DNA from: Gammaproteobacteria bacterium
GTDB taxonomy: Bacteria; Pseudomonadota; Gammaproteobacteria; Eutrophobiales; Eutrophobiaceae
Direction: 5' to 3'
Length of the DNA: 64,000 bases
Assembly: GCA_965116495.1 (NCBI GenBank)
Contig: OZ220696.1
Coordinates: forward strand, 768,001-832,000
In this document: in pieces, positions 30,930 through 53,668 of the stretch
Numbering within the stretch: position 1 is the first letter of the stretch
Layout of the letters: the number at the start of each line of letters is the position of its first letter
Made by a program: the position numbers and the translations under genes
The notes under the pieces: generated by a model
Databases searched by the model: none
The model's input: only the letters and a program-made list of their open reading frames with translations
What the model was told of the DNA's origin: nothing

Positions 30930-32220
30930 TTCCCTGATGCCTCTGCCAAGAGTATGCCAGCAGTTGCATCATAGTATTTTGCATGCGTCGGCATGATACT
31001 GTTGGCGCATGGGGAATCATTTGAAACAGGTATTGCGGTGCGCAGGTAATTCGGGGAATAGCCGAAGCGGACCTGTTGTTCATTGATTACATTTACGTCG
31101 TTTTCTACCAGTACGGGAAATGACCGGCCCACATGCCGCTGCATAAAGTCGTGTTTCAGTTGTTGCGCCAGTAAATGCAGTTGCCGCAACGATATTTTTT
31201 TATCTCTACCGGCACCTGTCCCGGTAACGTTGCAGCCCTGGTCCCGGCTCGCGGTGAATAGGGAAAGACATGGATATGTGGAAATCCGATTGTCCGGCAG
31301 TAATCCAGGGTTTGTTGCCACTCCGTGTCGGTTTCACCTGGAAATCCGGCGATAATATCCGTTGTTACATTTATATCAGGAACATATTCCCTTGCGGTTC
31401 GCACCAGGTCTGTAAACCCGCCGGTACTGCAGCGCCGGCCCATGCGCCGGAGCACGCTGTCACTGCCGCTTTGCAGGGGCAGATGCAGATGCGGCATAAA
31501 CCTGGAATTATCGAAAAGCATAAAAAAATCATTATCCAGATTCCAGGGTTCCAGCGAACCCAGTCGCAGCCTGGGCACGTCGGTTTCAGTGAGTATTGTA
31601 TTGATCAATGAAGGTAAATCCGTCCCAAGCTCATGTCCGTAACCGCCGATGTGCACACCGGTCAGGATGACCTCCAGGATTTGCCGTGAGTGTAATCCGT
31701 TGATCTCGTCGATGATATCCTTCATGGCACGGCTGCGTTCCGCCCCGCGCGCTACCGTGACTATACAAAAAGTGCATTTGTGCCGGCAACCATCCTGTAT
31801 TTTGATGAAAGCCCGGTTGCGTCCCCTGGTAAACAAGGCGGTTTCTCCCGGTTCAGTAGCCATTTCCGGCATGGCTTCAACCGAGAGCCTCTGATTTACG
31901 ATATCAACGAGCTGATCTTTTTCCGTATTACCGACCATCAGGTCGATGCCCGGCAGTTCATTATAAATACCGGGTTGCAGGCTTGCATAACAACCGCTGA
32001 CTACCAGTTTGGCATTTGCGTTGCGGCGCCGGGTACGCCGTATCAATTGCCTGGATTTTTTTACCGCTTCCCCGGTAACGGCGCAGGTATTGACGACTAC
32101 CAGGTCGGCATCGTCGACCGAGTTGCTTAACCGGTACCCGGCCGCCTGGAAACCGGTTGCCCAGTGTTCCAGTTCGGCCTCGTTCAGGCGGCACCCCAGG
32201 GACTTCAGTGCTACTTGCAT
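30926..32220 (-). pseudogene. mtaB: tRNA methylthiotransferase MtaB interrupted by a 1-nt frameshift near 31185-31201
   Basis: LGCRLN, NTCAVT, KIQDGCRHKCTFC, HLPLQSG and FPYSPRAGT lie in 31156-32220. The expected C-terminus (RQLHLLAQQLK...VLVE...GYSPNY) continues in another frame to 30926. Confidence 0.85.
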
Positions 32221-32229
32221 GATGATAAC

Positions 32230-32399
32230 AATTAAAAATTAGGAATTAAGAATTAATGTGCCGCCTGTGGCGGCGGTTTTTCAATGCATCTTATCCCTTC
32301 CGCAAGTTGGATCAAAGCACACGGTTACGTAACATTTGTAATTCCTAATTCCTAATTCCTAATTCCTAATTCGTAATTCCTAATTCGTAATTCCTAATT
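32230..32399. repeat. Heptamer tandem repeats in inverted arrangement
   Basis: Eight TAATTC(C/G) units plus a partial unit at 32339-32399; four degenerate complementary AATTAnn units at 32230-32257; GCCGCC...GGCGGC hairpin between them. Confidence 0.9.
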
Positions 32400-33541
32400 G
32401 TCTCTTTCGCTATGATCAGTTTTTGTATCTCGGAAGCGCCCTCGTAGATGCGCAACGCGCGGATTTCCCGGTAGAGTTCTTCAACCTTTTCACCCCGGGT
32501 TACCCCGCGTCCCCCGAATATCTGAACAGCCTGGTCGATAACCTCCTGGGCCGATTCGGTCGCATACAATTTAGCTATTGCCGCTTCCCGCGTCACGCGC
32601 TCAGCGCCGCTGTCCTTGGCCCAGGCGGCACGGTAAACCAGCAGGGCGCTTGCATCAATCGCTACGGCCATATCGGCGATCTTGCCCTGGATCATCTGCA
32701 TATCGGCAAGTGTCTTGCCGAACAGTCGCCTGGCGCCGGCATGCTTCACTGTTTCATCCAGCGCGCGCCGGGCGAATCCCAGCGCAGCCGCTCCGACCGT
32801 CGGACGAAACACATCCAGCGTGGCCATGGCAATTTTGAAACCCTCACCCGGCCGGGCCAGCAGGTTTGTTTTCGGCACCCTGCAGTCCTCGAACACCAGG
32901 CGCGCCAGTGGGTGGGGAGCGATAGTATCGATCCTTTCGGCCACTACCAGCCCGGGGGCATCAGCATCCACAATGAGGACACTCAGACCCCGCCCCCCCG
33001 TTTCCTCTCCGGTCCTGACAAACACGGTATAATAGTCCGCGATACCACCGTTTGAGATCCAGGTTTTCTCGCCATTGATTACGTAATCCGGACCGTCGGT
33101 TACGGCGGAAGTAGTCAGGGAAGCAACATCCGAGCCGGCGCCGGCTTCAGATAATGCAAAAGCGGCAATTTTAGCGCCACTGCGAACCGCCGGCAGGTAA
33201 TCATTCCTTTGTGCCTGATTGCCGAACAGGGCAATGGCTCCGCTGCCCAGTCCCTGCATGGCGAAGACAAAATCCGCCAGGCCGGAATGGCTCGCCAGGA
33301 TCTCCCGAACAAGACATATTGACCTTACATCCACCGGCTTGACGGAAGCCGGCGCGGGCGCGGCATGGATAAGCCACCCGGCATCAGCTATTTGTTTCAA
33401 TAATACCCTGCAGGCATCATCGATATTATCAGGATATTGCCGGGGCAGGTGCCGGCCTGACCATTCTGCAAGTTCAGCGGCAAGGCGCCTGTGGTCCGCC
33501 AGAAAAAAAGGCCAGTCAAGATAGCTGCGGTCAACCATCAA
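32366..33541 (-). CDS. Acyl-CoA dehydrogenase (abm-cluster type)
   Basis: [40 protein letters not shown]. Confidence 0.92.
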
Positions 33542-34347
33542 TCACCTTCGAATTCAGGTGTTTTCTTATTGATAAAGGCAGTGTAAGCGCGTTGGAAATC
33601 CGCTGTCTGCATACAGATTGCCTGGGCCTGGGCTTCAGCCTCTATTGCCTGTTCCAGCCCCATATTCCATTCCTGACGCAGCATGGTTTTGGTGATACCG
33701 TGGGCGAACGCGGGTCCCCGGAGCAACCGTCCGGCCAACTTTTTCGCTTCATCCAGTAATGTATCCGCTGATACCAGAGAGTTATAAAATCCCCAGCGAT
33801 GACCTTCATCCGCACTCATGGACCGACCGGTGTACAGTAATTCCGCCGCACGGCCCTGGCCTATAATCCGGGGCAGTATGGCACAAGCGCCCATATCACA
33901 ACCGGCCAGACCGACACGGGTAAACAGGAAAGCCGTTTTTGCTTCCGGTGTCGCTATACGCATATCGCTCGCCATGGCGATTGCGGCGCCGGCGCCCACA
34001 CAGATACCGTCCACCGCAGCGATGACAGGTTGCGGGCAGTGGATCATGGCCTTGATGAGATCGCCGGTCATGCGGGTGAATTCCAGCAGTTCTTTCATGT
34101 TCTTTTGAGTCAGGGGGCCTATGATATCGTGTACGTCACCGCCGGAGCAGAAGTTGCCTTCAGCACCGGTAATAATCACGACCCTGACGTCATCTGCAGC
34201 GGCCAGGTGGCGAAAGGTATCGCGCATTTCCGCATAGGAAGAAAAGGTGAGCGGGTTCTTTCTTTCCGGCCGGTTCAGGGTCAGCGTCGCTACACCATCG
34301 GAACAGGACCAGTCAAAATGCTGCGGGATATATCCGGACATGCTCAT
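33538..34347 (-). CDS. Enoyl-CoA hydratase family protein (abm-cluster type)
   Basis: [44 protein letters not shown]. Confidence 0.92.
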
Positions 34348-34389
34348 TGATAATTTCCGTGTATGTCAGTGATAAGGCGATTATGGGTA

Positions 34390-35154
34390 TCACATTACTT
34401 CGCCACCGGCTATCGGGATGGACTGGCCGGTGACGGATTCGCTGCCTGGCAGGCATAACCAGGCTACCGCGGTGGCTACTTCTTCCGGTTCGATAAACCG
34501 GTGTTGCGGGTTAGCCGATTTGAGGCGCGCTTCAGCATCCTCCCGCGCCATGCCCGTCTTGTCCATAATCCTGGTTATTGCCTCCGTAATCAAGTCAGTA
34601 TTGGTATAGCCCGGGCAGATTGCATTGACGGTTATACCGGTCCCTGCCAGTTCCAGCGCCAGGGAACGGGTAAGGCCGATGACGCCATGTTTGGCCGCGC
34701 AATAAGCCGCCACATAAGCATAGCCGGTAAGCCCGGCAGTACTGGCTATATTGATGATACGGCCCCAGTCTGCTTCAAGCATCCCGTCCAGCACCTGGCT
34801 GCTGCAATAAAATACACCATCCAGGTTAACGGCAATCGACTGTTTCCAACTGTTATTGTCGATGCGCGCGAATGGACTGCTGCCGGCCATGCCGGCGTTA
34901 TTTACCAGGATGTCAACAGGACCAAACCGGGCTACAGCTTCTGCAAACCCTGCCACTACGGTTTCTTCATCAGCTACGTCCAGCTGTACAGCGGATGCGC
35001 GACCTAACTGCTCCGCCCTGGAATGTAAAGAACTTTCCGTCCGGCCCATCAGGGTAATCCTGGCCCCCAGCCGGTCCATTTCCGCTGCGATCGCTGCGCC
35101 TATACCCTTGCCACCGCCGGTAACCACCACATGTTTATCGTTGAGAGCATTCAT
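34390..35154 (-). CDS. SDR oxidoreductase (abm-cluster type, 3-hydroxyacyl-CoA dehydrogenase-like)
   Basis: TGGGKGIG, NNAG, YVAAYCAAKHG, C-terminal AGGEVM. Confidence 0.92.
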   Translation of the reverse strand: MNALNDKHVVVTGGGKGIGAAIAAEMDRLGARITLMGRTESSLHSRAEQLGRASAVQLDVADEETVVAGFAEAVARFGPVDILVNNAGMAGSSPFARIDNNSWKQSIAVNLDGVFYCSSQVLDGMLEADWGRIINIASTAGLTGYAYVAAYCAAKHGVIGLTRSLALELAGTGITVNAICPGYTNTDLITEAITRIMDKTGMAREDAEARLKSANPQHRFIEPEEVATAVAWLCLPGSESVTGQSIPIAGGEVM

Positions 35155-35272
35155 ATGACACGGCTATATTACCATAGCCTGATTCCGCTCAGCCCGCCGG
35201 TATTTTTCTATTCAAAAATACATTCACTAATGCTACACTTGCCCAGTTAAATTTGAATACCTGCAAAAAGCC

Positions 35273-37720
35273 ATGGGGAAAGACCTGATTGTTGTAGGCA
35301 ATGGAATGGCGCCCAGCCGCGCTTTGGAAAAACTCAACGAACAGGATCCTGATGCCTACAATGTCACAATTTTCAACGCCGAACCGCGCGTCAGCTATAA
35401 CCGCGTCATGTTATCTCCGGTCCTGTCCGGTGAGGAAGATTTTGAGAAAACCATTATTCACGGGGATGACTGGTATTTTAAGCACGGCTTTATTCTCTAC
35501 CGGGGTTGCCCGGTCACTGAAATAGATCGGGAAGCCAGGACAGTCAAGGCCATTAATGGAATTGCCGAGCCTTATGACAAACTGCTGATTGCAACGGGGT
35601 CATCTCCGGTCAAACTTTCCATTCCTGGAAACGACAAGGAAGGGGTGCTTTCGTACAGAGACCTGGACGATGTGAAAGCCATGCTGAGCGCTGCTGAAAC
35701 CAAGCGGCAGGCGGTGGTGATTGGTGGCGGACTGCTCGGACTCGAGGCGGCTGCAGGACTGCGCAACCGGGGTATGGAAGTGACGGTAGTGCACCGCAAC
35801 CCTACACTAATGGACCGCCAGTTGGATGAGACTGCCGGCCACCTGTTACAGCGCGCAATCGAGTCACTCGGCATCCGGGTGTTGACCGGGAGACATACAA
35901 AAGCAATCACCGGCGACGAGCATGTAAAGGGGGTACTGTTTAAGGACGGTAGTAGTATACAAGCGGATATCGTGATCATGGCGGTGGGGATTCGTCCGAG
36001 TGTATGGTTGGCGGATAACGCCGGGTTGAATGTCAACCGGGGAATCGTTGTCGACGAACATATGCGCACCTCTGATCCCGACATCCTCGCAATCGGCGAG
36101 TGCGCTGAATTCGAAGGGAATGTTTACGGTCTGCTTGCACCACTATACGAAATGGCGAACGTCGCTGCCGCCACTTTACTCGGAGATGAGGAGCAACAAT
36201 TCGAAAATCGGGTGACTGCGGCACAACTAAAGGTAACGGGGATTGATCTCTATTCTGCCGGTGACTTTGCCGACAGCGATAATCGGGAAGAGATTGTTTT
36301 GCGGGACCCGAACCAAGGCGTATACAGACGGCTTGTCCTCGAAGACAACCGTTTGGTTGGGACAGTTCTTTACGGTGATACCTCGTCCATGGGATGGTAC
36401 TTCCAGATGATCAAGGACAGCACGGATATCTCCGGTATCCGTGATTACATGATATTCGGGCCCGGTTTTGCAGAAGGCGCGGCCCAAGACCCGACGGCAG
36501 CTGTTGCGTCCCTGCCGGATGATGCGGAGATCTGCGGATGTAACGGTGTAACAAAAGGCGAGATCAAGCAAGCTGTTGACGCTAACAACCTGACTACGCT
36601 GGAAGAGGTGCGCGCCTGCACCAAGGCATCCGCCTCTTGCGGGTCATGTACCGGTCTGGTGGAACAACTGCTGCTCCTGAGACTTGGCGATTCGTACCAA
36701 CCCGCTGAGGTAAAACCCATATGCGGCTGTACCGATCTGAGTCATTCCGATGTGCGCCGGCTTATCAGCGCGCGCAATATCAAAACCATACCCGATTTGA
36801 TGCAGGAACTGGAATGGAAGAGTTCCGGCGGTTGCGCCAAGTGCAAGCCTGCGCTGAATTACTACCTGCTGGCGACCTGGCCGGGTGAATACGTCGATGA
36901 TAAACAATCCCGTTTCATCAATGAGCGGGTACATGCCAACATTCAGAAGGACGGCACTTATTCCGTCGTACCGCGAATGTGGGGAGGATCTACGTCTTCC
37001 AGCGAATTGCGCGCTATTGCGGACGTGGTTGACAAATTCCATATACCGACAGTCAAGGTAACCGGTGGTCAGCGCATCGATATGCTCGGTATCAAAAAAG
37101 AAGACCTGCCTGCAGTCTGGGCGGACCTGAATAAAGCCGGCCTGGTTTCGGGACATGCCTACGGCAAAGCGGTTCGTACGGTAAAAACCTGTGTCGGCAA
37201 GGAATGGTGCCGCTTTGGCACCCAGGATTCCACCGGGCTGGGTATCCGGCTGGAAAAATTCCTGTGGGGTTCATGGACGCCTGCCAAGGTAAAGATGGCG
37301 GTCTCGGGATGTCCGAGAAACTGTGCTGAAGCCACTTGTAAGGATGTGGGCATCGTTTGCGTGGAATCCGGGTATGATGTCCACTTCGCCGGCGCTGCCG
37401 GCATGGATGTCAGGGAGACCGAATTGCTGGGCCATGTCGACAACGAAGATGACGCCATAGAAATAGTGGCTGCCGTTATACAGCTATACCGGGAGCAGGG
37501 ACATTATCTTGAAAGGATCTACAAGTGGGCCAGGCGTGTCGGCGTAGATTCGATCCGGGATGCGGTTGTGGATGATGCAGCCAATCGCAAATCACTGTGC
37601 GCAAGGTTTGTCCACTCACAGAAATTTCATCAGATCGATCCTTGGGAAGAACGGGTAAAAGGCCATGATCAGCATGAATTCGCCCCGATCAAGGAACTCA
37701 GCACTCTGGAGTTGGCTTGA
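35273..37720 (+). CDS. nirB: NAD(P)H nitrite reductase large subunit
   Basis: GNGMA, GGGLLGLEAA, two BFD-like Cys clusters, ANIQKDGTYSVVPR, KTCVG..WC, SGCPRNC. Confidence 0.96.
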   Translation: MGKDLIVVGNGMAPSRALEKLNEQDPDAYNVTIFNAEPRVSYNRVMLSPVLSGEEDFEKTIIHGDDWYFKHGFILYRGCPVTEIDREARTVKAINGIAEPYDKLLIATGSSPVKLSIPGNDKEGVLSYRDLDDVKAMLSAAETKRQAVVIGGGLLGLEAAAGLRNRGMEVTVVHRNPTLMDRQLDETAGHLLQRAIESLGIRVLTGRHTKAITGDEHVKGVLFKDGSSIQADIVIMAVGIRPSVWLADNAGLNVNRGIVVDEHMRTSDPDILAIGECAEFEGNVYGLLAPLYEMANVAAATLLGDEEQQFENRVTAAQLKVTGIDLYSAGDFADSDNREEIVLRDPNQGVYRRLVLEDNRLVGTVLYGDTSSMGWYFQMIKDSTDISGIRDYMIFGPGFAEGAAQDPTAAVASLPDDAEICGCNGVTKGEIKQAVDANNLTTLEEVRACTKASASCGSCTGLVEQLLLLRLGDSYQPAEVKPICGCTDLSHSDVRRLISARNIKTIPDLMQELEWKSSGGCAKCKPALNYYLLATWPGEYVDDKQSRFINERVHANIQKDGTYSVVPRMWGGSTSSSELRAIADVVDKFHIPTVKVTGGQRIDMLGIKKEDLPAVWADLNKAGLVSGHAYGKAVRTVKTCVGKEWCRFGTQDSTGLGIRLEKFLWGSWTPAKVKMAVSGCPRNCAEATCKDVGIVCVESGYDVHFAGAAGMDVRETELLGHVDNEDDAIEIVAAVIQLYREQGHYLERIYKWARRVGVDSIRDAVVDDAANRKSLCARFVHSQKFHQIDPWEERVKGHDQHEFAPIKELSTLELA

Positions 37721-38073
37721 TGTCATCTGATTGCTGGACAACTATAGGAAATGTGGATGATATACCGGTTGCGGGCGCGCGGGTGGTCATCTCCCCCGGC
37801 TGCAGGATAGCGGTATTTCGAACCGAGGACAATCAAGTCTTCGCGCTGGAAGATCGATGCCCGCATCGCAAAGGTCCTATCAGCCAGGGGATCGTCCACG
37901 GCAAGAAGGTAACATGTCCCCTGCACAACCTGGTTATTGACCTGGACAGTGGAAATACGCAGGAATCCGGCATCGTACCGGTATGCACCATATCCACCCG
38001 GGTCGGAGAGAACGGAGAAGTGCTGCTGAATATGGATGACATCCGGGCCAGACTGGAGTCCGGGACCAGATAA
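37720..38073 (+). CDS. nirD: Nitrite reductase small subunit (Rieske type)
   Basis: IAVFRT, CPH.KGP.SQGIVHG..VTCPLH; TGATG coupling to nirB. Confidence 0.93.
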   Translation: MSSDCWTTIGNVDDIPVAGARVVISPGCRIAVFRTEDNQVFALEDRCPHRKGPISQGIVHGKKVTCPLHNLVIDLDSGNTQESGIVPVCTISTRVGENGEVLLNMDDIRARLESGTR

Positions 38074-38108
38074 CACGCATAGAACGTCCGCCTGGTGCAG
38101 TGGTTGAA

Positions 38109-39266
38109 TCAGCGGTTGGGCGTATGACCGCAAACCATGCCGGCGATGATCATCTTCTGTATGTTCGAGGTCCCTTCGACTATTTGCAGGGACTTGGCGT
38201 CGCGATAGAACCGTTCGGCCGGGTATTCCGTGGAATAACCGTAGGACCCGAAGATTTTCATACACTCGTTTGCCGCGTGCACCGCTGCTTCGGACGCAGC
38301 AAGTTTGGCCATGGAGGTTTCATACTGGTTGGGCCTGCCCTGATCCTTTAACCAAGCGGCCTTGTATACCAGCAGTTGCGCAGCCTGGTGTTCCACCGCC
38401 ATGTCGGCAATCTGGGACTGTATCATCTGGTGGCGTGAAATGGGTTTGCCGAATTGCTTACGCTCGTTTGCATAGTCAACGGCCAGTTGTAGTGCGCCAC
38501 CGGCCACACCCAGGGCGCCGGCGGCACAACCGATGCGGGTATTGTTCAACTGCCACATGCACATCTTGAAGCCGTTGTTAAGTTCGCCGAGCAGGGCGTT
38601 TTTGGGAACACGTGCGCCTGCAAAGATAAATTCACCGGTCGGGGAGCAATGCAGACCCAGCTTGGTGTCGATGGGCCGGGCAGTACAGCCTTCCAGGTTC
38701 TTGGGTTCGATGATAAAGCAACTGATGCCCTTGTTGCCCTTGTCCCGGTCCGTATAGGCGTACAACAGGCCGGCGTCGCCTATATGGGCGTTGGAGATCC
38801 ATATCTTGCTGCCATGCAGTTCATAATGGTCGCCCCTGTCGATGGCGTGGGTCTTCATGTTGGCAACATCGGAACCGGTATCCGGCTCAGTCATGGCAAA
38901 GAACCCTATTCGGGCGCCATTGATCCAGCCGGGAATGTATTTCTCCTGTTGTTCCTGTGTGCCGAATTCAGCTACTGACAGGGGAGCGCCGAGGTTCTGC
39001 ATGTTGAAGGGCAGTCGCCATGAGGCCGATACCTGGCTAATCTGCTCCGCCATGAGCACGGATTCCAGGAAGCCCATCCCGTTTCCGTTCAATTCTTCCG
39101 GCAACACACATGAAAAAAAACCGAGTTCGCCCATTTCTGCCACGCGTTCCAGCTTGAATTCATGGTTTTTTTCTTCCTGTTCGAGTGTCGGCGCAATTTC
39201 TTCCAGGGCAAATCGCCGGGCCGTATCCTGTACCAGACGCTGCTCTTCGGTTAATTCAAAAAACAT
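38109..39266 (-). CDS. Glutaryl-CoA dehydrogenase, non-decarboxylating type
   Basis: ACAD fold with RxxxN (WRLPFN) carboxylate-binding motif, YAYTD, YGYSTEYP, and Val rather than Tyr before the catalytic Glu (IVEGT); last gene of the decarboxylase operon. Confidence 0.85.
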   Translation of the reverse strand: MFFELTEEQRLVQDTARRFALEEIAPTLEQEEKNHEFKLERVAEMGELGFFSCVLPEELNGNGMGFLESVLMAEQISQVSASWRLPFNMQNLGAPLSVAEFGTQEQQEKYIPGWINGARIGFFAMTEPDTGSDVANMKTHAIDRGDHYELHGSKIWISNAHIGDAGLLYAYTDRDKGNKGISCFIIEPKNLEGCTARPIDTKLGLHCSPTGEFIFAGARVPKNALLGELNNGFKMCMWQLNNTRIGCAAGALGVAGGALQLAVDYANERKQFGKPISRHQMIQSQIADMAVEHQAAQLLVYKAAWLKDQGRPNQYETSMAKLAASEAAVHAANECMKIFGSYGYSTEYPAERFYRDAKSLQIVEGTSNIQKMIIAGMVCGHTPNR

Positions 39267-39279
39267 GGTTGATTCTCTC

Positions 39280-39501
39280 TTATGCAGACTCGATAGACAT
39301 GAGTGGCTGATCCTCCTCCACTTCGTCGCCTTCCTTGACCAGGATTTGTTTCACCTTGCCGTCACAGGGAGCATAGACCGGCGTTTCCATTTTCAAAGCC
39401 TCGATGATAAGCACTTCGTCATCCTCTTCGAGGACTTCGTTCAGTGTTGCCGTAATTTTCCAGATTGTTCCCGACAGGGGCGCCAATACCTCTTCCGCCA
39501 T
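39280..39501 (-). CDS. Stand-alone biotin carboxyl carrier subunit (GcdC-like)
   Basis: 73 aa; APLSG, EALKME biotinyl-lysine motif, VKEGDEV. Confidence 0.92.
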   Translation of the reverse strand: MAEEVLAPLSGTIWKITATLNEVLEEDDEVLIIEALKMETPVYAPCDGKVKQILVKEGDEVEEDQPLMSIESA

Positions 39502-39517
39502 GACTTTTCTCCGAGAT

Positions 39518-40621
39518 TTATTGCAAGATTGTTAGAAATATACCGGCAGCAATGACGGTACCGATTACACCGGCGATATTGGGGCCCATGGCAACCATGA
39601 GCAGGTAATTCTTTTTATCCGCCTCAGCCCCAATTTTCTGAACCACCCGGGCCGCCATCGGCACGGCAGAGACCCCGGCCGCGCCGACCAGGGGATTGAT
39701 CTTGTCCGGGATAAAAATATTCAGCAGTTTGGCCAGCAGTATGCCGCTTGCCGTACTGATCATGAATGCGAACATGCCGAGGAAGAAAATCAGTATGACG
39801 TCACTACGTAAAAAACTGTCTGCGCTCATGGTTGCGCCTATACTGACGCCAAGGAATATGGTTGCTATATTCATCAGGGAATTCTGGGCGGCATCAGTCA
39901 AACGATCGACCACCTTGGATTCCCGGAACAGGTTGCCCAGCATGAACATGGACACCAGGGGCGCAGAAGCAGGTACCATCAGGATAATCACCATGGCGGC
40001 TATTATGGGAAACAGCAGCTTCTCCCTCGGACTGATCTTACGGCCTTTGCGCATGCGGATTTTTCGCTCATTTTCCGTCGTCAACAAACGCATGATAGGG
40101 GGCTGGATGATAGGCACCAGCGCCATGTAGGAATAGGCGGCAACCGCGCAGGCACCGAGCAGGTGCGGCGCCAGTTTCGCCGCCAGAAAGATAGTCGTGG
40201 GTCCGTCCGCCCCGCCAATAATGCTGATGGTGGCGGCATCTTCCAGGCTGAAACCCATCCAGCAAGCCAGAAAAAACGTAAGGTAAACACCCACCTGCGC
40301 GCCTGCGCCCAGAAAGATGAGTAATGGTTGCGAGAGTAACGGGCCGAAATCGGTCAGCGCGCCAAGACCCAGGAAGATCAGGGGGGGAATGATGCGCCAT
40401 TCGATCCCGTGGTGATAGAAGCGCCAGAGCAATCCGTCTCCGGGCTCCATCAGCCCGGTCAACGGCAGGTTGGCAAGGAGAATGCCGAAACCTATGGGCA
40501 GCAGCAACAATGGTTCATACTGCCTGGTGACAGCCAGGTAGAGCAGGGTCAGTCCAATCAGCCACATCAGCAACATTTCGGGCGTGACGGAAAAAATCCC
40601 CATGTTTTCTATAAACGCCAT
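39518..40621 (-). CDS. Na+-translocating decarboxylase beta subunit (GcdB/OadB)
   Basis: EPLLLLPIGFG, GALTDFGP, IIGGADGPT, AYSYMALVP, GVSAVPMAARV, MGPNIAGVIG. Confidence 0.97.
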   Translation of the reverse strand: MAFIENMGIFSVTPEMLLMWLIGLTLLYLAVTRQYEPLLLLPIGFGILLANLPLTGLMEPGDGLLWRFYHHGIEWRIIPPLIFLGLGALTDFGPLLSQPLLIFLGAGAQVGVYLTFFLACWMGFSLEDAATISIIGGADGPTTIFLAAKLAPHLLGACAVAAYSYMALVPIIQPPIMRLLTTENERKIRMRKGRKISPREKLLFPIIAAMVIILMVPASAPLVSMFMLGNLFRESKVVDRLTDAAQNSLMNIATIFLGVSIGATMSADSFLRSDVILIFFLGMFAFMISTASGILLAKLLNIFIPDKINPLVGAAGVSAVPMAARVVQKIGAEADKKNYLLMVAMGPNIAGVIGTVIAAGIFLTILQ

Positions 40622-40749
40622 TATTCTTCTTTATTCTCCGGCTTCCTGTTTACCACCAGCGCGAGCACCTTGACGGCGAAATACAACATTGCCATTCCGG
40701 CGAATACACCGCCGATACCGTTAAGGAATATTTCCAGTGCCTGTTCCAT
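40621..40749 (-). CDS. 42-aa OadG/GcdD-like membrane subunit (absent from the ORF track)
   Basis: MEQALEIFLNGIGGVFAGMAMLYFAVKVLALVVNRKPENKEE; one TM helix with GxxxVF; its stop overlaps the beta-subunit ATG (TAATG). Confidence 0.85.
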   Translation of the reverse strand: MEQALEIFLNGIGGVFAGMAMLYFAVKVLALVVNRKPENKEE

Positions 40750-40772
40750 GAACCTGGTTTTGCCGATAGTGA

Positions 40773-42506
40773 TCAGTTCTTTATAATTCTGGGCAGCATC
40801 ATCTGGTGCCTGGGGCAGATGGAACGCGGGTTCTGGTAAGCTGCTCCTGCAAAAGCCGTAAGATAATTCCTTAATTGCGTCAGGTCCACCACCTCATCGA
40901 CCAGGCCATAACGCGCACAATACTCCGGACTTGAATTTTGCCGGTATTGTTCCGCCAGGGCATTCATCTTGTCGGCAACCTCATCCAGCGGCCTGCCGGC
41001 GTCTTTTTCCTTGACCGCACGCCTCGAGTACATGGCAACGGCTGCGGTCTCACCGTGCATGACAGCTATCTCCGTAGCCGGCGTGCCCAGCGTAAACGCA
41101 TTATGCCGGTTTGCCGTCGGGCCGCCCATCAGGTAGTGAGCCGCGGCCGTCCCCTTGCGCAGAACTACCAGCATCATCGGCAAGTCGGTCTGCTGTATGG
41201 AATAGATCAGGGATTGGCCCAACCCCAGCAGTTCGGCTTTTTCAGCCAGGTCTCCGACGTCGATACCCGAGGTGTCCTGAAACCAGATAACGGGGATACG
41301 GTCACGCCCGCAGTGGGTGACGAATTCGTTCATTTTGATCAGACCCTGGCGATACAGTTTCCCTCCAATACCGGGGTAATCGCCGTATTCCGGATAACCT
41401 TTACCCAGGTAACCGGATCGATTTCCTATACATCCAATTGCAAAACCGTCAAACCTGCATAAGCCCGTGTAGACCTCGGGCCCGTAGTCCGGACGGAATT
41501 CCATGTGTTCGCCGGCGTCCACCAGGCGGGCAAGTATATCGTCAAAGGAATACACCTCTTTCTGGTTAAAAGGCAACAGGTAGTAGAGGTCGTCGGCGGG
41601 ATAGGCCGGCGCGGTGGGTTCGGCAACCTGGAAAAAATGGGGTTTGTACGCAGGCATCGCCTCCATGTATTCCCTGATACCGTCCAGCACTTCCGTCTCT
41701 TCTTCATAGACTTCCGTAAAAAATCCGGTTTCGTCATAATGGGTCTCGGCCCGGCCGGGTGGTTTGGCGCTGAAAGAGCGGGTTTTTTCCACCAGTTCCT
41801 CAAGCATCCCGGCGCTGAATCCCCCTCTTGGCGCCATGCCGGAGACGATACCGACACCGCCTACGGCCATGTTGGCGTCCTTGTGGGCGAGCAGGATAGT
41901 AGGGCTGATGCCGTGATAACCCCCACCGGCGGGGTTTGTGCCGTAAATACCGGCGAGGACCGGCACCCCCAGTTGATTCAATTCTGCATGGCGAAAAAAC
42001 GTCGTGCCTGAACCGCGCCGGTTGGCATAGAACTTTTCCTGCTCATCCAGTTTTACTCCGCTGCAGTTGACCAGCCAGATCAGCGGAATATGGAGTCGTT
42101 TGGCCAGGTCGGTAACACGCAGAATATTCTCGGACTGGCCGGGCAACCAGGCGCCGGCCAACACCTTGTTGTCAAACCCGATCACAACCGCCCAGCGGCC
42201 GGCGACCCTGGCCAGGCCGTCAACCACGTTGGTTGCCCCGGTTGCGTTGTCCATCGGGTTGTAGAGACTGTGCAACGGTCGCCAGGTGCCCGGATCGATC
42301 AGGTATTCCAGGCGTTGCCGGACTGTCATGGCGCCGCGCTTGTTGATTTGTTCCGTGGTGAAACCCGCGTTCTCGACGTCTTTCCTGTGCTGATCAATTT
42401 CCGCCTCAACCTGTTTCAACTGTTCCATGCTTGCGGACGCACGCTTGATCCGGCCTTGCTTCAGTTCCTTGCCGAATCGCTGCATGTTCTCAAAATAAGG
42501 CTTCAT
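40773..42506 (-). CDS. gcdA: Glutaconyl-CoA decarboxylase alpha (carboxyltransferase) subunit
   Basis: MKPYFENM, DNKVLAGAW.PGQ, NCSGVK..EQEK.Y.NRRG.GT.FFR, GTNPAGGGY, GTAAAHY.MGGP, YQNP.SICP.HQM.LPR, as recalled for GcdA. Confidence 0.92.
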   Translation of the reverse strand: MKPYFENMQRFGKELKQGRIKRASASMEQLKQVEAEIDQHRKDVENAGFTTEQINKRGAMTVRQRLEYLIDPGTWRPLHSLYNPMDNATGATNVVDGLARVAGRWAVVIGFDNKVLAGAWLPGQSENILRVTDLAKRLHIPLIWLVNCSGVKLDEQEKFYANRRGSGTTFFRHAELNQLGVPVLAGIYGTNPAGGGYHGISPTILLAHKDANMAVGGVGIVSGMAPRGGFSAGMLEELVEKTRSFSAKPPGRAETHYDETGFFTEVYEEETEVLDGIREYMEAMPAYKPHFFQVAEPTAPAYPADDLYYLLPFNQKEVYSFDDILARLVDAGEHMEFRPDYGPEVYTGLCRFDGFAIGCIGNRSGYLGKGYPEYGDYPGIGGKLYRQGLIKMNEFVTHCGRDRIPVIWFQDTSGIDVGDLAEKAELLGLGQSLIYSIQQTDLPMMLVVLRKGTAAAHYLMGGPTANRHNAFTLGTPATEIAVMHGETAAVAMYSRRAVKEKDAGRPLDEVADKMNALAEQYRQNSSPEYCARYGLVDEVVDLTQLRNYLTAFAGAAYQNPRSICPRHQMMLPRIIKN

Positions 42507-42612
42507 CAGGCTTATTTCCTCAAAAAGAATCGAATGATGTCAAAACATAAGTGCCGGGTGAAGGCTTCACCCTTGCGGGTTGAATAGTGCAACACACTAT
42601 ACCACATCACAC

Positions 42613-42785
42613 AATTTGGGACACCCATAAATTGTGCGCTATCTGTAACGCAATCTGGGACACTCGCAAATTTATGTTGTCCTGATTTTCTAATTTATGG
42701 ATGTCCCAAATTAAGAAATATTCTAATTTATGGATGTCCCAAACTAAGAAATATTCTAATTTATGGGTGTCCCAAATTAAGAAAT
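42613..42785. repeat. Three tandem 33-bp palindromic units facing two inverted 21-bp cores
   Basis: TTCTAATTTATGG(A/G)TGTCCCAAA(T/C)TAAGAAAT(A) at 42688, 42721 and 42754; AATTTGGGACACCCATAAATT (42613-42633) is the exact reverse complement of the third core; a degenerate copy lies at 42652-42672. Confidence 0.92.
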
Positions 42786-42899
42786 CGAACGAGGCTGATG
42801 TCATTGATTCCAATTGGTGGTTTAATCTGTGCAATAGCGGCTATAATGTACTGGCAGTCCTGTGGCTGCCATAATAATCAATCAGATGGGATATCGTTC

Positions 42900-43298
42900 A
42901 TGCAAATTGTACTACCGTCCGGCTGGCCCCGTCCTCAAGGCTATTCCAACGGGGTTGCCGCGCGCGGCAAGCTGATCTTTGTCGCAGGACAGATTGGCTG
43001 GGATAGAGATAATATCTTAATCAGCGATAACCTGGCTGAACAGGTGCGCCAGACACTGAAAAATACAATTGCCGTACTGGCCGAGGCAGGTGCGGGACCT
43101 GAACATGTAACCAGGATGACCTGGTATATCCTGGACAAACAGGAGTATCGGGCTTGCTTAAAGGAAATAGGGGAAGCCTACCGGGAAGTCATGGGCAGGA
43201 ACTACCCGGCTATGGCCATGGTGCAGGTCACTGCATTGATTGAGGACCGGGCCCGGGTGGAAATTGAAACGACTGCAGTTCTACCCGATCAATCCTGA
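42900..43298 (+). CDS. RidA/YjgF family enamine/imine deaminase (abm-cluster type)
   Basis: LPSGWPRPQGYSNG, VAGQIGW, RMTWY, VEIETTAV; ATG 42900 preferred over the longer ORF start. Confidence 0.92.
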   Translation: MQIVLPSGWPRPQGYSNGVAARGKLIFVAGQIGWDRDNILISDNLAEQVRQTLKNTIAVLAEAGAGPEHVTRMTWYILDKQEYRACLKEIGEAYREVMGRNYPAMAMVQVTALIEDRARVEIETTAVLPDQS

Positions 43299-43753
43299 TG
43301 AAATCCGGCAACGAATCCAAGCATTCGTTGAGGGCCTGGCTTTACCTGATCAAGTGCTCGAAAAAACTCGACCAGATCATGTCGACCCGGCTGCGTCTTT
43401 ACCATCAGAGTTCCCTGACAAGATTTGACGTACTGGCACACCTGGACCTGGCAGGTGATGCAGGTTTGAGCACTTCGGTACTGGCCGGCAAGCTGCTGGC
43501 ATCAAAGGGGAATATTACCCGCTTGCTCGACAGGATGGAGCAGGACGAACTTATCGTCAGGCACCAGCATTCCGAAGACAAGCGTATCCACAGAATTTGC
43601 TTGTCCGAAAAAGGCGCCGAGGCGTTCAACCGGATGGCGCCGGACCATGAGCGCTGGACCCATGAAATACTGAGCGTGCTTGATTCCCGTGAACAGGCCG
43701 AACTGGTCCGGTTATTGAAAACAGTCAGGTCGCGACTGGAAGATGTCCTGTAA
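43298..43753 (+). CDS. MarR family regulator
   Basis: LRAWL, SLTRFDVLAHL, SKGNITRLLDRME, DKR wing motif. Confidence 0.92.
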   Translation: MKSGNESKHSLRAWLYLIKCSKKLDQIMSTRLRLYHQSSLTRFDVLAHLDLAGDAGLSTSVLAGKLLASKGNITRLLDRMEQDELIVRHQHSEDKRIHRICLSEKGAEAFNRMAPDHERWTHEILSVLDSREQAELVRLLKTVRSRLEDVL

Positions 43754-43779
43754 GGGATTGTGTCAGCGTAGTGTTGTAC

Positions 43780-43965
43780 TTAGCTGAATAACATACGTAA
43801 GTCAAGCAACAGCAGGGCTATGACCAGTCCCAACGTCAGTCTGCTCGTTATTTTCAACTCCGCCAGTGTAACCACTATCTCAGAATTGTCATTAGCTGCT
43901 TCTTTTGCCACTTGCTCATCCGCTCCGGCTGAAATTAACGCTCGATACAAGTTTGTTCCGTTCAT
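43780..43965 (-). CDS. Small head/coiled-coil/C-terminal membrane-anchor protein
   Basis: MNGTNLYRALISAGADEQVAKEAA...LTLGLVIALLLL; GGAG RBS before ATG 43965. Confidence 0.65.
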   Translation of the reverse strand: MNGTNLYRALISAGADEQVAKEAANDNSEIVVTLAELKITSRLTLGLVIALLLLDLRMLFS

Positions 43966-44138
43966 ATTTGACTCTCCGTAGAACATATCAAGTTTCCATT
44001 TTGTGTGTTTCTCAGGCCTGCATTGGAATCTAGTATTGAGTGGTCAGCATTGTCAAGTACTATGAAAAAAATATCAAAATGAGTGAAGTTTACATGTAAG
44101 ATAATCCCATTTACACTCCGGTAATTGGAACTGGTTAC

Positions 44139-46523
44139 ATGAACGATTTGAAGATAGTCTGTCTCGGCGGGGGACCGGCGTCACTGTATTTCTCCCTCCT
44201 GATGAAAAAAGCGCACTCCGGGCATGATATCACCGTGCTCGAACGCGGCCCCCGTGATGCTACCTGGGGCTTCGGCGTGGTTTTTTCCGACGATACGCTG
44301 CGCGGCTTCATGGAGGCGGATGCGCCCAGCTACAAACGTATCGTCGAGCAATTCGCCTACTGGGACAAGATTGAGACCCGCATGCACGGGACTAAAGTCG
44401 TCAGCGGCGGTCACGGGTTTTGCGGCATGTCGAGACTGAAGTTGCTTAATGCCCTGCATGACCGTTGTGTTGAACTGGGCGTGCTACTGAAGTTCAACAC
44501 CGATATCACCGATCTGGCGCAACTGGATATTGACAAATACGACCTGGTAGTTGCCGGAGACGGCATCACCTCCATGCTGCGTACTGCGTACGCGACGGAA
44601 TTCGGTACCAGGATGGACTGGCGCCCAAATCGCTTCTGCTGGCTGGCAACGACTTTGCCGTTGGACAGTTTCACCTTTATTTTTCGCGAAAACGAACACG
44701 GTTGGTGGTGGGTGCATGGCTATCGTTATGAAGAGGGGATGTCCACCTGGATCGTGGAATGCAGCCAGAAAACCTGGATCAACGCCGGCATGGATTCGTT
44801 CTCCGAGGATGATACCCGAACCTATATTGAAGAAGTGTTCAGGGAAGACCTGCAGGGGCATCCCATTATAACCAACCGGTCGCTATGGCGCGAATTCCCC
44901 GTGGTGACTAACGCCAGGCTGTATTACAAAAATATTGTCCTGCTCGGGGATGCCGGGCGTTCGGCCCACTTTTCCATCGGTTCCGGCACCAAGCTGGCCA
45001 TGGAAGACGCAATTACCCTGGCAGATTTTTTTCGACAGCAGGACTACCGGGTCAACGCCACCCTGGCTGCTTACCAGGAAGTGCGAAAACCTGAGGCAGA
45101 CCGGCTGCAACGCACCGCGGTGACCAGCCTGCGCTGGTTTGAGAACATTGATCACTACGCGCAGCAGGATGTGGAGCAATTCACCTTCAACATGATGGTG
45201 CGTTCCAAACGCGTCACTTACGAGAACCTCAGGCTGCGCGATCCCGCGTTTATTCAATCCATAGACAAGTGGTTTGCCGGATATACCCATACGCTGACGG
45301 GGTTTGACGATATCGATACGGACAACCCCGCGGCGCCGATGTTCCAGCCTTTCAGGATCGGCCGTATGCGCGTCGAAAACCGGGTCCAGCTTTCCGCCAT
45401 GTGCCAATATTGTGCGACGGACGGCCTTCCCGGCGAGTGGCACTTCGTCCATTACGGCGCCAGGGGAATAGGCGGCGCGGGCCTGGTCAGTACGGAAATG
45501 CTGTGCACATCGGCAGACGGGCGGATTACCCCCGGTTGTGCCGGGATATGGAACGATGAACAAACGGAACAATGGCGCCGTATTACCGCGTTCATCCATG
45601 CCCATAGCGAGGCGAAAGTATGCGGGCAAATCGGCCATGCCGGCCGTAAGGGAGCGACCTGTATTCCCTGGCGGGGCGGGATCGATCAGCCGCTCCCGGA
45701 CAACGCCTGGGAGACTATCGCACCGTCACCTCTGCCGTACCTGGAACACAGCCGCCTGCCGCGGGAAATGTCAAGGGAGGACATGGAAGGGGTGGAAGCG
45801 GATTTCGTGAATGCGACCGGGAATGCCGCAGATGCCGGGTTCGATATGCTGGAAGTGCACATGGCGCACGGCTATTTATTGTCTTCCTTTATCAGCCCTT
45901 ACACCAACCGGCGTACTGATGAATATGGCGGGGATATCGGCAACCGCGCCCGGTTTCCGTTGCGTATCCTGCGTGCGGTACGCCAGGCATGGCCGTCGGA
46001 ACGGCCCTTATCGGTGAGAATTTCGGCAACCGACTGGATCAGCGACGGCTTGTCCGGGGAGGATTTGTCCAAACTGGTTTTACTGCTGCAGGAAAACGGC
46101 GCCGACATCATCAATGTATCGACAGGACAGGTCGTCAGCCATGAGGAACCCGTCTACGGACGTATGTACCAGGCGCCATTTGCCGATCGGATCCGCAATG
46201 AACTGGGAATTTCGACCATGGTTGCCGGCAATATCAGCAGTGCAGACCAGGTCAACACCCTGGTCGCCGCAGGGCGGACCGACCTGGTTGCCCTGGCGCG
46301 CCCGATTATGAACGAGCCTCAATTCGTATTGAATGCTGCTGCCCGTTACGGTTACCGGGAGCAGCACTGGCCAGTGCAATACGAGGCGGGAAAATTCGCG
46401 GCGGAACTGAATGCCGCCAGGGAAAACCTGGAACAGGATGAACTGAGAAGCAACGCCAAACCACCGAATCCGCAGGAAATGCTGGCCATTGCCATAGCCC
46501 GCGGTGAGGTGTTATTGGATTGA
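44139..46523 (+). CDS. Bifunctional anthraniloyl-CoA monooxygenase/reductase (AbmA / salicylyl-CoA 5-hydroxylase family)
   Basis: N-terminal FAD monooxygenase (GGGPA, WGFGVVFSD, AHFSIGSGTKLAMED, RVTYENLRLRD) fused to an OYE-like domain (MCQY, HAGRKG, HMAHGYLLSSFISP). Confidence 0.92.
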   Translation: MNDLKIVCLGGGPASLYFSLLMKKAHSGHDITVLERGPRDATWGFGVVFSDDTLRGFMEADAPSYKRIVEQFAYWDKIETRMHGTKVVSGGHGFCGMSRLKLLNALHDRCVELGVLLKFNTDITDLAQLDIDKYDLVVAGDGITSMLRTAYATEFGTRMDWRPNRFCWLATTLPLDSFTFIFRENEHGWWWVHGYRYEEGMSTWIVECSQKTWINAGMDSFSEDDTRTYIEEVFREDLQGHPIITNRSLWREFPVVTNARLYYKNIVLLGDAGRSAHFSIGSGTKLAMEDAITLADFFRQQDYRVNATLAAYQEVRKPEADRLQRTAVTSLRWFENIDHYAQQDVEQFTFNMMVRSKRVTYENLRLRDPAFIQSIDKWFAGYTHTLTGFDDIDTDNPAAPMFQPFRIGRMRVENRVQLSAMCQYCATDGLPGEWHFVHYGARGIGGAGLVSTEMLCTSADGRITPGCAGIWNDEQTEQWRRITAFIHAHSEAKVCGQIGHAGRKGATCIPWRGGIDQPLPDNAWETIAPSPLPYLEHSRLPREMSREDMEGVEADFVNATGNAADAGFDMLEVHMAHGYLLSSFISPYTNRRTDEYGGDIGNRARFPLRILRAVRQAWPSERPLSVRISATDWISDGLSGEDLSKLVLLLQENGADIINVSTGQVVSHEEPVYGRMYQAPFADRIRNELGISTMVAGNISSADQVNTLVAAGRTDLVALARPIMNEPQFVLNAAARYGYREQHWPVQYEAGKFAAELNAARENLEQDELRSNAKPPNPQEMLAIAIARGEVLLD

Positions 46524-46583
46524 ACATGCGTTATAATTTACCGGGCATGTAACGACATGAAGGACAGGGTGGGAGAATCTAAG

Positions 46584-47906
46584 ATGACAAAATACACCGA
46601 TGAACAACTGGCCGGTTTGATCAGAAAAGATTGCGTCCATAGAAACGTCTATACCGATCCTGAAATCTTTGATCTTGAGATGGAACGCATCTGGACCAAA
46701 GCCTGGATCTACGTGGGCCATGACAGTCAGGTAAAACAGCCGGGCGACTATTTCGCCACCAGTATCGGCAGGCAGCCTGTCATCATGACCCGGCACAGCG
46801 ACGGAAAGGTTTACGTTCTGTTCAACCGCTGCAGCCACAAGGGCGCCCAGGTGGTAGGTGAGAGTTGCGGCCACATGCAGCAGTTACGCTGCAGCTACCA
46901 TGGTTACGTATTCGACACCGACGGCACCTTGATACATATCCCCCGGGAAGAAGCCTACGACGGCGCCGGGTTCGGCAAAGGCAAGGCGGAATCCAATATG
47001 CAGCGGGTACCGCGGGTGGACAGTTACCACGGCCTGGTATTCGCCAGCCTGTCTGCACAAGGTCCTGATCTGAAAACCTGGTTAAGTGGCGCCGCGGCAT
47101 CCATTGATAACCTGGTGGAACGCTCACCGGAAGGGCGTATTGAAATTGCCGGGGGCTGTTTCCGTTACCTGCATGATTCCAACTGGAAGATGTTTGTGGA
47201 AAACCTGAATGACGCCATGCACCCGATGGTCGTTCACCAGTCGTCCAGCGGTACTGCCAAACGGGTATTTGATGAACGCCTGAAAGAGGGGGACCCGGTA
47301 CCGTTCGAACTTGAGATGCTGGCGCCGTTCACCAACAACTACGAGTTCTTTGAAAAGATGGGGCTCACTGCCTGGGACAACGGTCACAGTGTCACCGGAG
47401 GCAAGTTCAGTATCCATTCAGCCTATTCACCCATTCCCGGCTACATGGATTCCCTGGTCGAAAAATATGGCGAGCAGAAGGCGCGGGAAATCCTAGCGGT
47501 AAACCGCCACAACACCGTGGTCTATCCCAGCTTTACCCTGAAGGGCGCAATCACCTCGATACGCGTGGTCAAACCTGTGGCCGTAGACAGAACCGTTATC
47601 GAATCCTGGGTGTTCAGACAGGTAGGAGCGCCGGAAGAACTGTTTCGACGTTCCATCACTTACTGCAACCTCATCAATTCCCATGCCAACCTGGTAGGCC
47701 CCGATGACTACGAAGCCTATCACCGCCTGCAATATGGCCTGCAGACACAGGATGATAACGAATGGGTAAGCCAGCACCGCTACCTGGACCAGGAAGAGCT
47801 GGAGGAAAATGGGACCAAGCATGCAGCAGGGACGTCCGATATGGTCTTTCGCCACCAGTATCAGACCTGGAAAAACTATATGGTCGACACCCGGCATGCA
47901 CAATGA
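46584..47906 (+). CDS. Rieske ring-hydroxylating oxygenase alpha subunit (IadD-like)
   Basis: NRCSH...CSYH Rieske motif; NWKMFVENLNDAMHPMVVH mononuclear Fe motif; GGGAG RBS before ATG 46584. Confidence 0.93.
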   Translation: MTKYTDEQLAGLIRKDCVHRNVYTDPEIFDLEMERIWTKAWIYVGHDSQVKQPGDYFATSIGRQPVIMTRHSDGKVYVLFNRCSHKGAQVVGESCGHMQQLRCSYHGYVFDTDGTLIHIPREEAYDGAGFGKGKAESNMQRVPRVDSYHGLVFASLSAQGPDLKTWLSGAAASIDNLVERSPEGRIEIAGGCFRYLHDSNWKMFVENLNDAMHPMVVHQSSSGTAKRVFDERLKEGDPVPFELEMLAPFTNNYEFFEKMGLTAWDNGHSVTGGKFSIHSAYSPIPGYMDSLVEKYGEQKAREILAVNRHNTVVYPSFTLKGAITSIRVVKPVAVDRTVIESWVFRQVGAPEELFRRSITYCNLINSHANLVGPDDYEAYHRLQYGLQTQDDNEWVSQHRYLDQEELEENGTKHAAGTSDMVFRHQYQTWKNYMVDTRHAQ

Positions 47907-48396
47907 ACAAACGGGCAACCCGCCCGACATCAAATCGATTGAGCAGTTCCTGTACCATGAAGCGCGCCTGCTGGATGAGCAACGCTGGGAAGAATGGAAC
48001 GCCCTGTACCTGGACGATGCCGAATACTGGGTACCGGCGGCACCGGACCAGCCGGATCCGCACAACCATGTCTCCCTGATCTATGAGACCGGGCTGCTCA
48101 GGGCTGTGCGTATCAAACGCTATAAACACCCGAATGCATTTTCCCTGCAGCCCAGGCCGCGCAGTGTGCACCTGATAAACAATATCATCCTGGACAAGTT
48201 TGATGCGGACAGCGGGGAGTGCAGCGTCAATTCTCGTTTTGTCATGCTGCAGTACCGCCGTGAAAAACAGGATGTATTCGCCGGGTCCTGCAATCACAGG
48301 CTGCGCATAGAGGGAGACGAATTCAGGATCGCGGGCAAGCGCGTAGACCTGCTCAACTGCGATGCGCCGCTGGAAAATATACTTATCTACCTGTAA
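47896..48396 (+). CDS. Ring-hydroxylating oxygenase beta subunit (IadE-like)
   Basis: QFLYHEARLLDEQRWEEW...YWVP...KRVDLLNCD. Confidence 0.93.
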   Translation: MHNEQTGNPPDIKSIEQFLYHEARLLDEQRWEEWNALYLDDAEYWVPAAPDQPDPHNHVSLIYETGLLRAVRIKRYKHPNAFSLQPRPRSVHLINNIILDKFDADSGECSVNSRFVMLQYRREKQDVFAGSCNHRLRIEGDEFRIAGKRVDLLNCDAPLENILIYL

Positions 48397-50335: not shown

Positions 50336-50371
50336 ACACAGGCTGCCCAGTCATACTGCCGGAAGAATTGT

Positions 50372-53617: not shown

Positions 53618-53619
53618 TA

Positions 53620-53646
53620 CTGGATTCCTGCCTCCGCAGGAATGAC
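53620..53646. repeat. REP-like palindrome (GGATTCC...GGAATGAC class)
   Basis: CTGGATTCCTGCCTCCGCAGGAATGAC; ATTCCTGC/GCAGGAAT stem. Confidence 0.75.
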
Positions 53647-53668
53647 GGATAATTCGATGAGGTGAGAC

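Follow-up and report, generated by a model that had tools for sequence, protein, structure and literature searches.

Two routes with the same net reaction lead from glutaryl-coenzyme A (glutaryl-CoA) to crotonyl-CoA, and a 2018 article, in its part on this step, assigns them to different lifestyles, facultative anaerobes using a single decarboxylating glutaryl-CoA dehydrogenase (GcdH) and obligate anaerobes a two-enzyme Na+-pumping route (PMC5852087). GcdH (PDB 3EOM, 1SIQ) conserves no energy; PMC7145394 puts the gain from a decarboxylation at about -30 kJ/mol. The closest described counterparts of the two-enzyme route are the non-decarboxylating dehydrogenase of Desulfococcus multivorans (PDB 3MPI/3MPJ, family model NF045552) and the clostridial glutaconyl-CoA decarboxylase (Gcd). 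Here we analysed a 64,000-nucleotide stretch of a gammaproteobacterial genome (assembly GCA_965116495.1, contig OZ220696.1, positions 768,001 to 832,000; hereafter the window), in which a five-gene block encoding both enzyme types on the minus strand is embedded in a cluster around an AbmA-like anthraniloyl-/salicylyl-CoA monooxygenase-reductase (abm cluster), next to an iad-like oxygenase cluster. Our reading, to which we assign a probability of roughly 0.65, is that this block replaces the one-enzyme glutaryl-CoA step by the two-enzyme Na+-pumping route in abm/iad aromatic catabolism. The enzyme pair is already known; what is new is the exchange of gcdH for the Gcd module inside an abm cluster. 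Searches of the open-access literature listed no report of a Gcd/dehydrogenase module in aerobes, nor of glutaryl-CoA as an abm product; PMC13101534 deals with an anaerobe.

The genes are arranged gcdA-gcdD-gcdB-gcdC-dehydrogenase with intergenic gaps of 23, -1, 16 and 13 bp, and the original prediction of a tightly coupled operon was confirmed for all five open reading frames (ORFs). The first, gcdA (40773-42506), encodes a glutaconyl-CoA:biotin carboxyltransferase of 577 amino acids whose best PDB matches were 1PIX (E 1e-222) and 3GF3. It scored 744 bits against the A. fermentans GcdA (1PIX) and 140 bits against the best non-Gcd carboxyltransferase, the others having E values of at least 9e-40; with the mmdA model it reached 129 bits against a cut-off of 999. 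By these scores the protein is predicted to be a GcdA-type carboxyltransferase and not an MmdA, methylcrotonyl-CoA carboxylase (MCC) or propionyl-CoA carboxylase, which disposes of a methylmalonyl-CoA or methylcrotonyl-CoA enzyme as an alternative. The source genome carries a separate MCC-like gene adjoining an isovaleryl-CoA dehydrogenase-like gene.

The membrane part is formed by gcdB (39518-40621, 367 amino acids), the predicted carboxybiotin decarboxylase and Na+-translocating subunit, and gcdD (40621-40749, 42 amino acids). GcdB passed TIGR01109 with 487 bits (cut-off 191), and in an alignment with S. enterica OadB (6IVA) its residues E36, D139, R240, N247, S318 and N348 matched Glu40, Asp203, Arg304, Asn311, Ser382 and Asn412, all six reported as essential in PMC7274780; OadB Ser419 is replaced by Thr355. 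GcdD is a putative short gamma subunit reduced to a single hydrophobic membrane helix, the linker and cytoplasmic domain being absent; it scored 24.7 bits on PF04277 (E 4e-05), below the cut-off of 27 and over profile positions 1-40 of 76 only. All 18 of the closest loci have it. The biotin carrier gcdC (39280-39501, 73 amino acids) is a bare biotinyl domain over the PF00364 cut-off, with the lysine of predicted biotinylation retained in its EALKM motif. The clostridial Gcd shares the GcdA orthologue and the B, C and D subunits, but its GcdC is a 14-15 kDa protein with an anchor, an Ala/Pro linker and an MKM motif and its GcdD has about 10 kDa, according to PMC7145394. Desulfobacterota-type loci likewise encode gcdA and a biotin carrier of, as a rule, about 71 amino acids together with the dehydrogenase, but there the carrier motif is EAMKM.

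The last gene (38109-39266) encodes a dehydrogenase of 385 amino acids that matched 3MPI best both in sequence (351 bits, compared with 193 bits for the decarboxylating 3D6B) and in fold (TM score 0.97, for a predicted model with a mean pLDDT confidence score of 93.5, built on a diverse alignment). The RxxxN and Val-Glu motifs noted in the original prediction were confirmed: R84-x-x-x-N88 and V363-E364 (in IVEGT) correspond, when the positions are counted by hand, to R87/N91 and V366/E367 of 3MPI, and Val-Glu was present in 120 of the 120 closest homologues. We take the Val that replaces Tyr before the catalytic Glu to be the mark of the non-decarboxylating enzyme, and Arg and Asn to bind the carboxylate. 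At the positions of Ser77, Leu85 and Val363 of this dehydrogenase, GcdH carries Glu, Ser and Tyr, respectively. Three measures pull the other way: identity to 3MPI is about 45%, short-chain acyl-CoA dehydrogenases are nearly as close by fold (TM 0.95-0.96), and the NF045552 score of 437.4 bits lies below the cut-off of 470, for which reason we file the protein as a proteobacterial sister subfamily and not as a member of the model. This subfamily likely works like the non-decarboxylating glutaryl-CoA dehydrogenase. The assignments of the original prediction, Gcd plus a non-decarboxylating-type dehydrogenase, are thus upheld by scores, conserved residues and fold.

Together, the five products would very probably act in sequence. 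The dehydrogenase would oxidize glutaryl-CoA and release glutaconyl-CoA, passing electrons to an electron transfer flavoprotein (ETF) encoded elsewhere in the genome; GcdA would transfer the carboxyl group to GcdC, setting crotonyl-CoA free; and GcdB with GcdD would couple the release of CO2 to the export of Na+.

The source genome (G000) consists of one contig of 4.34 Mb, with a completeness of 99.5% and a contamination of 1.1%. Three public runs belonging to one study, possibly the source data themselves, provide overlapping contigs that tile window positions 32000-48500 with no variant positions listed. The gene order is supported independently by relatives, since 15 of the 18 loci closest to the window's have all five genes inside the compared stretch. 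The contig is therefore continuous here, as the original prediction had wanted confirmed, and contamination or misassembly is excluded by these contigs, by the conserved order in relatives and by the presence of GcdA throughout the genus.

The operon splits the abm cluster, with ridA-marR-abmA on one side and genes for a short-chain dehydrogenase/reductase (SDR), a hydratase and an acyl-CoA dehydrogenase on the other. Divergently from gcdA run genes for a RidA-like deaminase (PF01042) and a MarR regulator (42798-43753, plus strand); ridA and gcdA are neighbors at 15 of the 18 closest loci. These are followed by the gene for the AbmA-like protein (44139-46523, plus strand, 794 amino acids), which scored 1040 bits on NF006101, just under the cut-off of 1078. 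Downstream of the module, on the minus strand, lie the SDR (34390-35154), an enoyl-CoA hydratase that passes NF006107 (33538-34347) and the acyl-CoA dehydrogenase (32366-33541), whose homologues adjoin abmA in 54, 55 and 39, respectively, of 88 abmA loci. The window thus holds the complete set shared with the abm cluster of Azoarcus evansii, namely the AbmA-like enzyme, SDR, hydratase, acyl-CoA dehydrogenase, RidA and MarR; it differs from that cluster in the embedded Gcd module and in its candidate abm-type ligase, which is encoded elsewhere in the genome (G000 3538723-3540354) and is 42-57% identical to the ligases of other abm clusters. Outside the module, genes for the nitrite reductase NirBD (35273-38073, plus strand; TIGR02374 and TIGR02378 over cut-off) are inserted between the module's dehydrogenase and the SDR. 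Of the 18 closest loci just 2 have nirBD at this place, and G000 has no gene that was identified as a nitrate reductase.

Beyond abmA follows a cluster resembling the indole-3-acetate (iad) genes of Variovorax (46557-54400, plus strand) and encoding Rieske oxygenase alpha and beta subunits, a DUF485 protein with an ActP-type symporter, a CoA ligase, a thiolase, an OB-fold protein and an SDR. The Rieske alpha subunit matched 7YLS best (E 5e-140; other Rieske enzymes 1.6e-43), a structure from the Variovorax iad work (PMC10374108). The block has the same enzyme types as the published iadD-H table, an IadD/E-like oxygenase followed by ligase, thiolase and SDR, but an ActP-type symporter where the Variovorax cluster has ABC-type binding proteins. 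The iad route leads to anthranilate, according to the pathway passages of PMC12852158 and PMC10374108. IadD-like alpha subunits occur in 22 of the 22 other genomes of the genus, with 1-6 paralogues per genome; three more in G000 (at 842549, 956787 and 1707950) are 39-50% identical, one of them with an internal TGA. With the AbmA-like monooxygenase and the IadD/E-like Rieske pair flanking the module, the claim that O2-dependent oxygenases are co-encoded is borne out.

Glutaryl-CoA as the module's substrate is supported by abm clusters that carry gcdH in place of the module. In a genome of a sister genus within the family (G031, L110) the order is abmA-marR-ridA-gcdH, then SDR-hydratase-dehydrogenase, so that a plain gcdH stands where the window has the module. 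In a class sample of 399 genomes, 16 with abmA and 383 without, gcdH was found in 13 of the 16 and in 50 of the 383 (Fisher p 5e-9, overstated because kinship and lifestyle are confounded); among the three abmA genomes without an ordinary gcdH, G156 has a divergent gcdH and G395 a Gcd module. Three of the 16 (G369, G351, G156) have gcdH immediately adjacent to ridA; in G318 the two are separated by about 20 kb, gcdH being the last gene of an iad-like cluster. Metagenomic abmA loci contained gcdH in 5 of 80, always beside ridA, and three control genes in 0 of 80. Two loci titled Ramlibacter (L039, L042) also have the Gcd module next to abmA. The gcdH-ridA link is recurrent but confined to a minority of abm clusters, and it suggests that the lower abm pathway ends in glutaryl-CoA. 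A review, in its lines on this pathway, has the AbmA product degraded further by beta-oxidation enzymes and says nothing more specific (PMC4539516); an ester of the size of cyclohexanedione-carboxyl-CoA has been observed in Arthrobacter (PMC3534580). In two alphaproteobacterial abm clusters (L137, L140), genes for 3-hydroxyacyl-CoA dehydrogenase and PcaF-like thiolase come after ridA, and at L213 ridA precedes gcdH and a PcaF-like thiolase gene; the 3-hydroxyacyl-CoA dehydrogenase and thiolase genes beside ridA are candidates for the missing abm beta-oxidation steps.

The feed of the module can be sketched from this context, and on balance we lean slightly toward it: IadD/E and their partners would yield anthranilate, the remotely encoded ligase would convert this to its CoA ester, dearomatization and deamination by AbmA and RidA would follow, and ring opening to a C7 diacid with loss of acetyl-CoA by beta-oxidation would give glutaryl-CoA. 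In keeping with the abm/iad placement, the two usual anaerobic sources need proteins of the HGD-D family (which covers BcrB/C and HgdA/B), and these were found in 0 of the 23 genomes of the genus; the dehydratase of the clostridial-type 2-hydroxyglutarate pathway was likewise not found in the host.

Several observations weigh against this placement, and most of them favor a different account, in which the enzymes are as described but serve as a general sink for glutaryl-CoA from amino acids or dicarboxylates, their position beside abm and iad genes being mere catabolic clustering. GcdA is present in 22 of the 22 other genus genomes and abmA in 14; since the remaining 8 keep gcdA without a detectable abmA, abm cannot be the sole feed. 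G000 also encodes a kynureninase and a 3-hydroxyanthranilate dioxygenase, again at odds with abm as the only source. The module adjoins boxBC, not abm, in G395 and an Oah gene in L053, and it is split by insertions in several relatives. The window's cluster itself has no reductase, cyclase or anthranilate ligase gene: neither the IadC reductase, for which no genome-wide search was made, nor the IadI cyclase is in it, and four cyclase genes lie elsewhere in G000. Finally, gcdH was absent from the compared abmA stretches in 12 of the 16 class genomes, from 75 of the 80 metagenomic loci, many of them short, and from 8 of 8 plasmid-borne abmA loci of cultured strains. Against the general sink, abm clusters that are unrelated to one another (L110, L130, L131, L134, the window and five metagenomic loci) have one of three dehydrogenase types adjoining ridA, a place the control genes never took. 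We therefore regard a general sink as unlikely, and prefer the replacement of the one-enzyme step within abm/iad catabolism.

Whether the membrane part is more than an accessory can be questioned, too. Natural pump-less variants exist: in G028 (L099:12383-15643, 97% complete) and G017 (L101:705-3849, 94%) gcdA, gcdC and the dehydrogenase gene are adjacent and no gcdB was found in either genome, which tells against an indispensable pump, and a pump-less case in Geobacter bemidjiensis has been published (PMC2996986). Decarboxylation might then be largely uncoupled from useful Na+ pumping, with the dehydrogenase, GcdA and GcdC as core and the membrane subunits merely regenerating the biotin carrier, an account to which the lack of the clostridial linkers in GcdC and GcdD (PMC7145394, subunit description) and the H+-type c subunit of the ATP synthase would also lend themselves. 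We consider it quite improbable, as 20 of the 22 other genus genomes retain a gcdB that is 83-92% identical and conserves all the Na+ ligands compared. In the preferred, coupled version of the route, Na+/solute symport would consume the Na+ gradient, or NhaA, which was over its cut-off in G000, would convert it; seven SSF symporter genes were found there, one of them inside the window. The gradient would not drive the ATP synthase directly, because the c subunit, with Asp as its ion-site residue and without the Na+ signature, appears to be of the H+ type, and because NqrB was not found in G000, the sole PF03116 match being RnfD. Only tentatively do we propose the full chain, in which an O2-dependent indole-acetate/anthranilate funnel and a lower abm pathway through glutaryl-CoA are joined to an anaerobe-type Na+ pump with a minimal untethered carrier; this pump would be a main source of the Na+ gradient in a respiring cell that lacks Nqr, and it could power the ActP-type uptake system of the same cluster.

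A substrate other than glutaryl-CoA, such as a substituted or longer dicarboxyl-CoA derived from a substituted indole and beyond the reach of the one-enzyme GcdH, would fit the distinct dehydrogenase subfamily with its long stem branch and the 1-6 IadD-like paralogues per genome. We hold it to be very improbable, given that R84, N88, V363 and E364 match 3MPI, that GcdA is a clear Gcd orthologue and that plain gcdH occupies the same slot in G031.

By its genes the host respires O2: the aa3 oxidase passes the CoxA cut-off in 23 of 23 genus genomes, and G000 also encodes boxBC, complex I genes and rnfCD. In this it differs from the D. multivorans system, its aa3 oxidase and oxygenase-based context coming without an HGD-D-type reductase. 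A gcdH probe validated against PDB 3EOM/3D6B, run because an additional gcdH had been flagged for checking, found nothing above 35% identity in G000 and no gcdH in the 22 other genus genomes; the gene is clear in 3 of 14 other genomes of the family. None of the 12 molybdoenzymes of G000 scores as NarG or NapA. A weaker search by motifs and without positive controls gave no NarG, NapA, NirK, NirS, NosZ, cbb3 or bd oxidase, Mrp or tryptophan dioxygenase. Operation mainly in reverse, with a Na+ gradient driving carboxylation of crotonyl-CoA for biosynthesis as reported for Syntrophus, or service in an anaerobic phase of life, which a heme-copper enzyme without the active-site tyrosine might hint at through NO exposure or low O2, is scarcely credible beside O2-dependent catabolic neighbors, without HGD-D proteins or NarG/NapA and with no etf genes next to the dehydrogenase. 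That heme-copper protein, the second of its family in the genome (L085:8552-9991; G000 3468552-3469991, minus strand), has H-V-F-I-N where O2 reductases have H-x-x-x-Y, its gene has a subunit II gene beside it and adjoins boxBC, and loss of this tyrosine is given as a mark of NO reductase-like families in a passage of PMC11214002.

The distribution of the module is patchy. GcdA was found in 1 of 14 other family genomes and in 1 of the 399 class genomes (one unscored, at most three candidates per genome), and the dehydrogenase in 20 of the 22 other genus genomes, the two misses being fragmentary bins, and in 0 of 370 phylum genomes (at most five candidates per genome); these samples do not bear out a module widespread in Proteobacteria. 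Metagenome searches counted 2185 homologues with GcdA and 1140 with the dehydrogenase; those listed were named as metagenome-assembled genomes (MAGs) of Gammaproteobacteria, Xanthomonadales, Woeseia, Ramlibacter and Sterolibacterium, with no cultured isolate among the matches listed. A plasmid search returned a single GcdA, from Fusobacterium. One relative (L021), with a GcdA 88% identical and the same ridA-marR-abmA neighbors, is a sponge-derived MAG according to the supplement of PMC8941161, which suggests a habitat for the lineage, though not with certainty for G000.

The original prediction had envisaged horizontal capture from Desulfobacterota-like anaerobes, with nearest neighbors among them; the matches and both trees instead place other Gamma- and Betaproteobacteria closest. 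Relatives were sampled as the best 80 of 157 GcdA matches. The GcdA tree was built on 49 of 78 rows after removal of 29 near-duplicates, and a branch with support 100 splits its gamma- and betaproteobacterial sequences from the Desulfobacterota-type rows. In the dehydrogenase tree, of 22 dehydrogenase rows and 6 outgroups with 3MPI itself left out, the proteobacterial and Desulfobacterota-type clades are sisters (each 100/100, joined at 100/99), 46-48% identical, the proteobacterial one having a long stem branch, and the window's dehydrogenase does not nest inside the Desulfobacterota-type clade. GC content at third codon positions (GC3) of the operon genes is ordinary for G000 (26th-61st percentile). 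Recent capture from Desulfobacterota is thereby ruled out; with genome-typical GC3 and fixation in the genus any transfer must be old, and an old transfer is likely, given the patchy distribution, although the trees lack a root that would fix donor or direction. Gammaproteobacterial GcdB clusters with rows labelled delta, Planctomycetota or unclassified (about 75% identity); the majority of the betaproteobacterial beta subunits sit apart on a long branch of their own, a discordance that makes the module a mosaic. In four betaproteobacterial loci (L032, L037, L039, L045) a Tyr-Glu gcdH stands side by side with the module's Val-Glu dehydrogenase. At L045 the compared stretch holds no beta subunit gene; in the other three loci the beta subunit is divergent, sharing about 50% identity with GcdB of the window.

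In relatives (L005, L008, L009, L103, L104, L105) the junction of gcdB and gcdC is a hotspot for insertions, where foreign DNA of 0.5, 1.1, 5.5, about 7.6 and about 14 kb was found; about 390 kb separate the halves of the module in G011. Upstream of gcdA are four copies of a 21-bp repeat (42613-42778); with 179 copies in 84 clusters across G000, densest around 3.55-3.76 Mb, it is not specific to the operon. A second, short AT-rich repeat family (window 32230-32413) has 118 copies in 52 clusters genome-wide. A promoter and terminator scan at the operon gave no signal above chance level. Farther out, a hydantoinase/oxoprolinase-type A/B pair (window 58591-62991) lies 4 kb past the iad-like block, and a second pair adjoins the abm-type ligase (G000 3534213-3538396). 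A MiaB/MtaB-like radical SAM gene (window 30938-32220) is split over two frames near 31190, in contrast to a single ORF of about 450 amino acids in a relative, reflecting either a pseudogene or a sequencing error.

A whole genus of uncultured bacteria with an aa3 oxidase and only the two-enzyme route breaks the split between facultative and obligate anaerobes, and finding the pair in a metagenome is therefore no safe sign that aromatics are degraded anaerobically. That gcdH and the module replace one another beside ridA bears on an old gap, the fate of the carbon after 2-aminobenzoyl-CoA monooxygenase. The small energy gain raises the bioenergetic question of why an aerobe retains such a route, for which the natural pump-less variants provide a comparison set.

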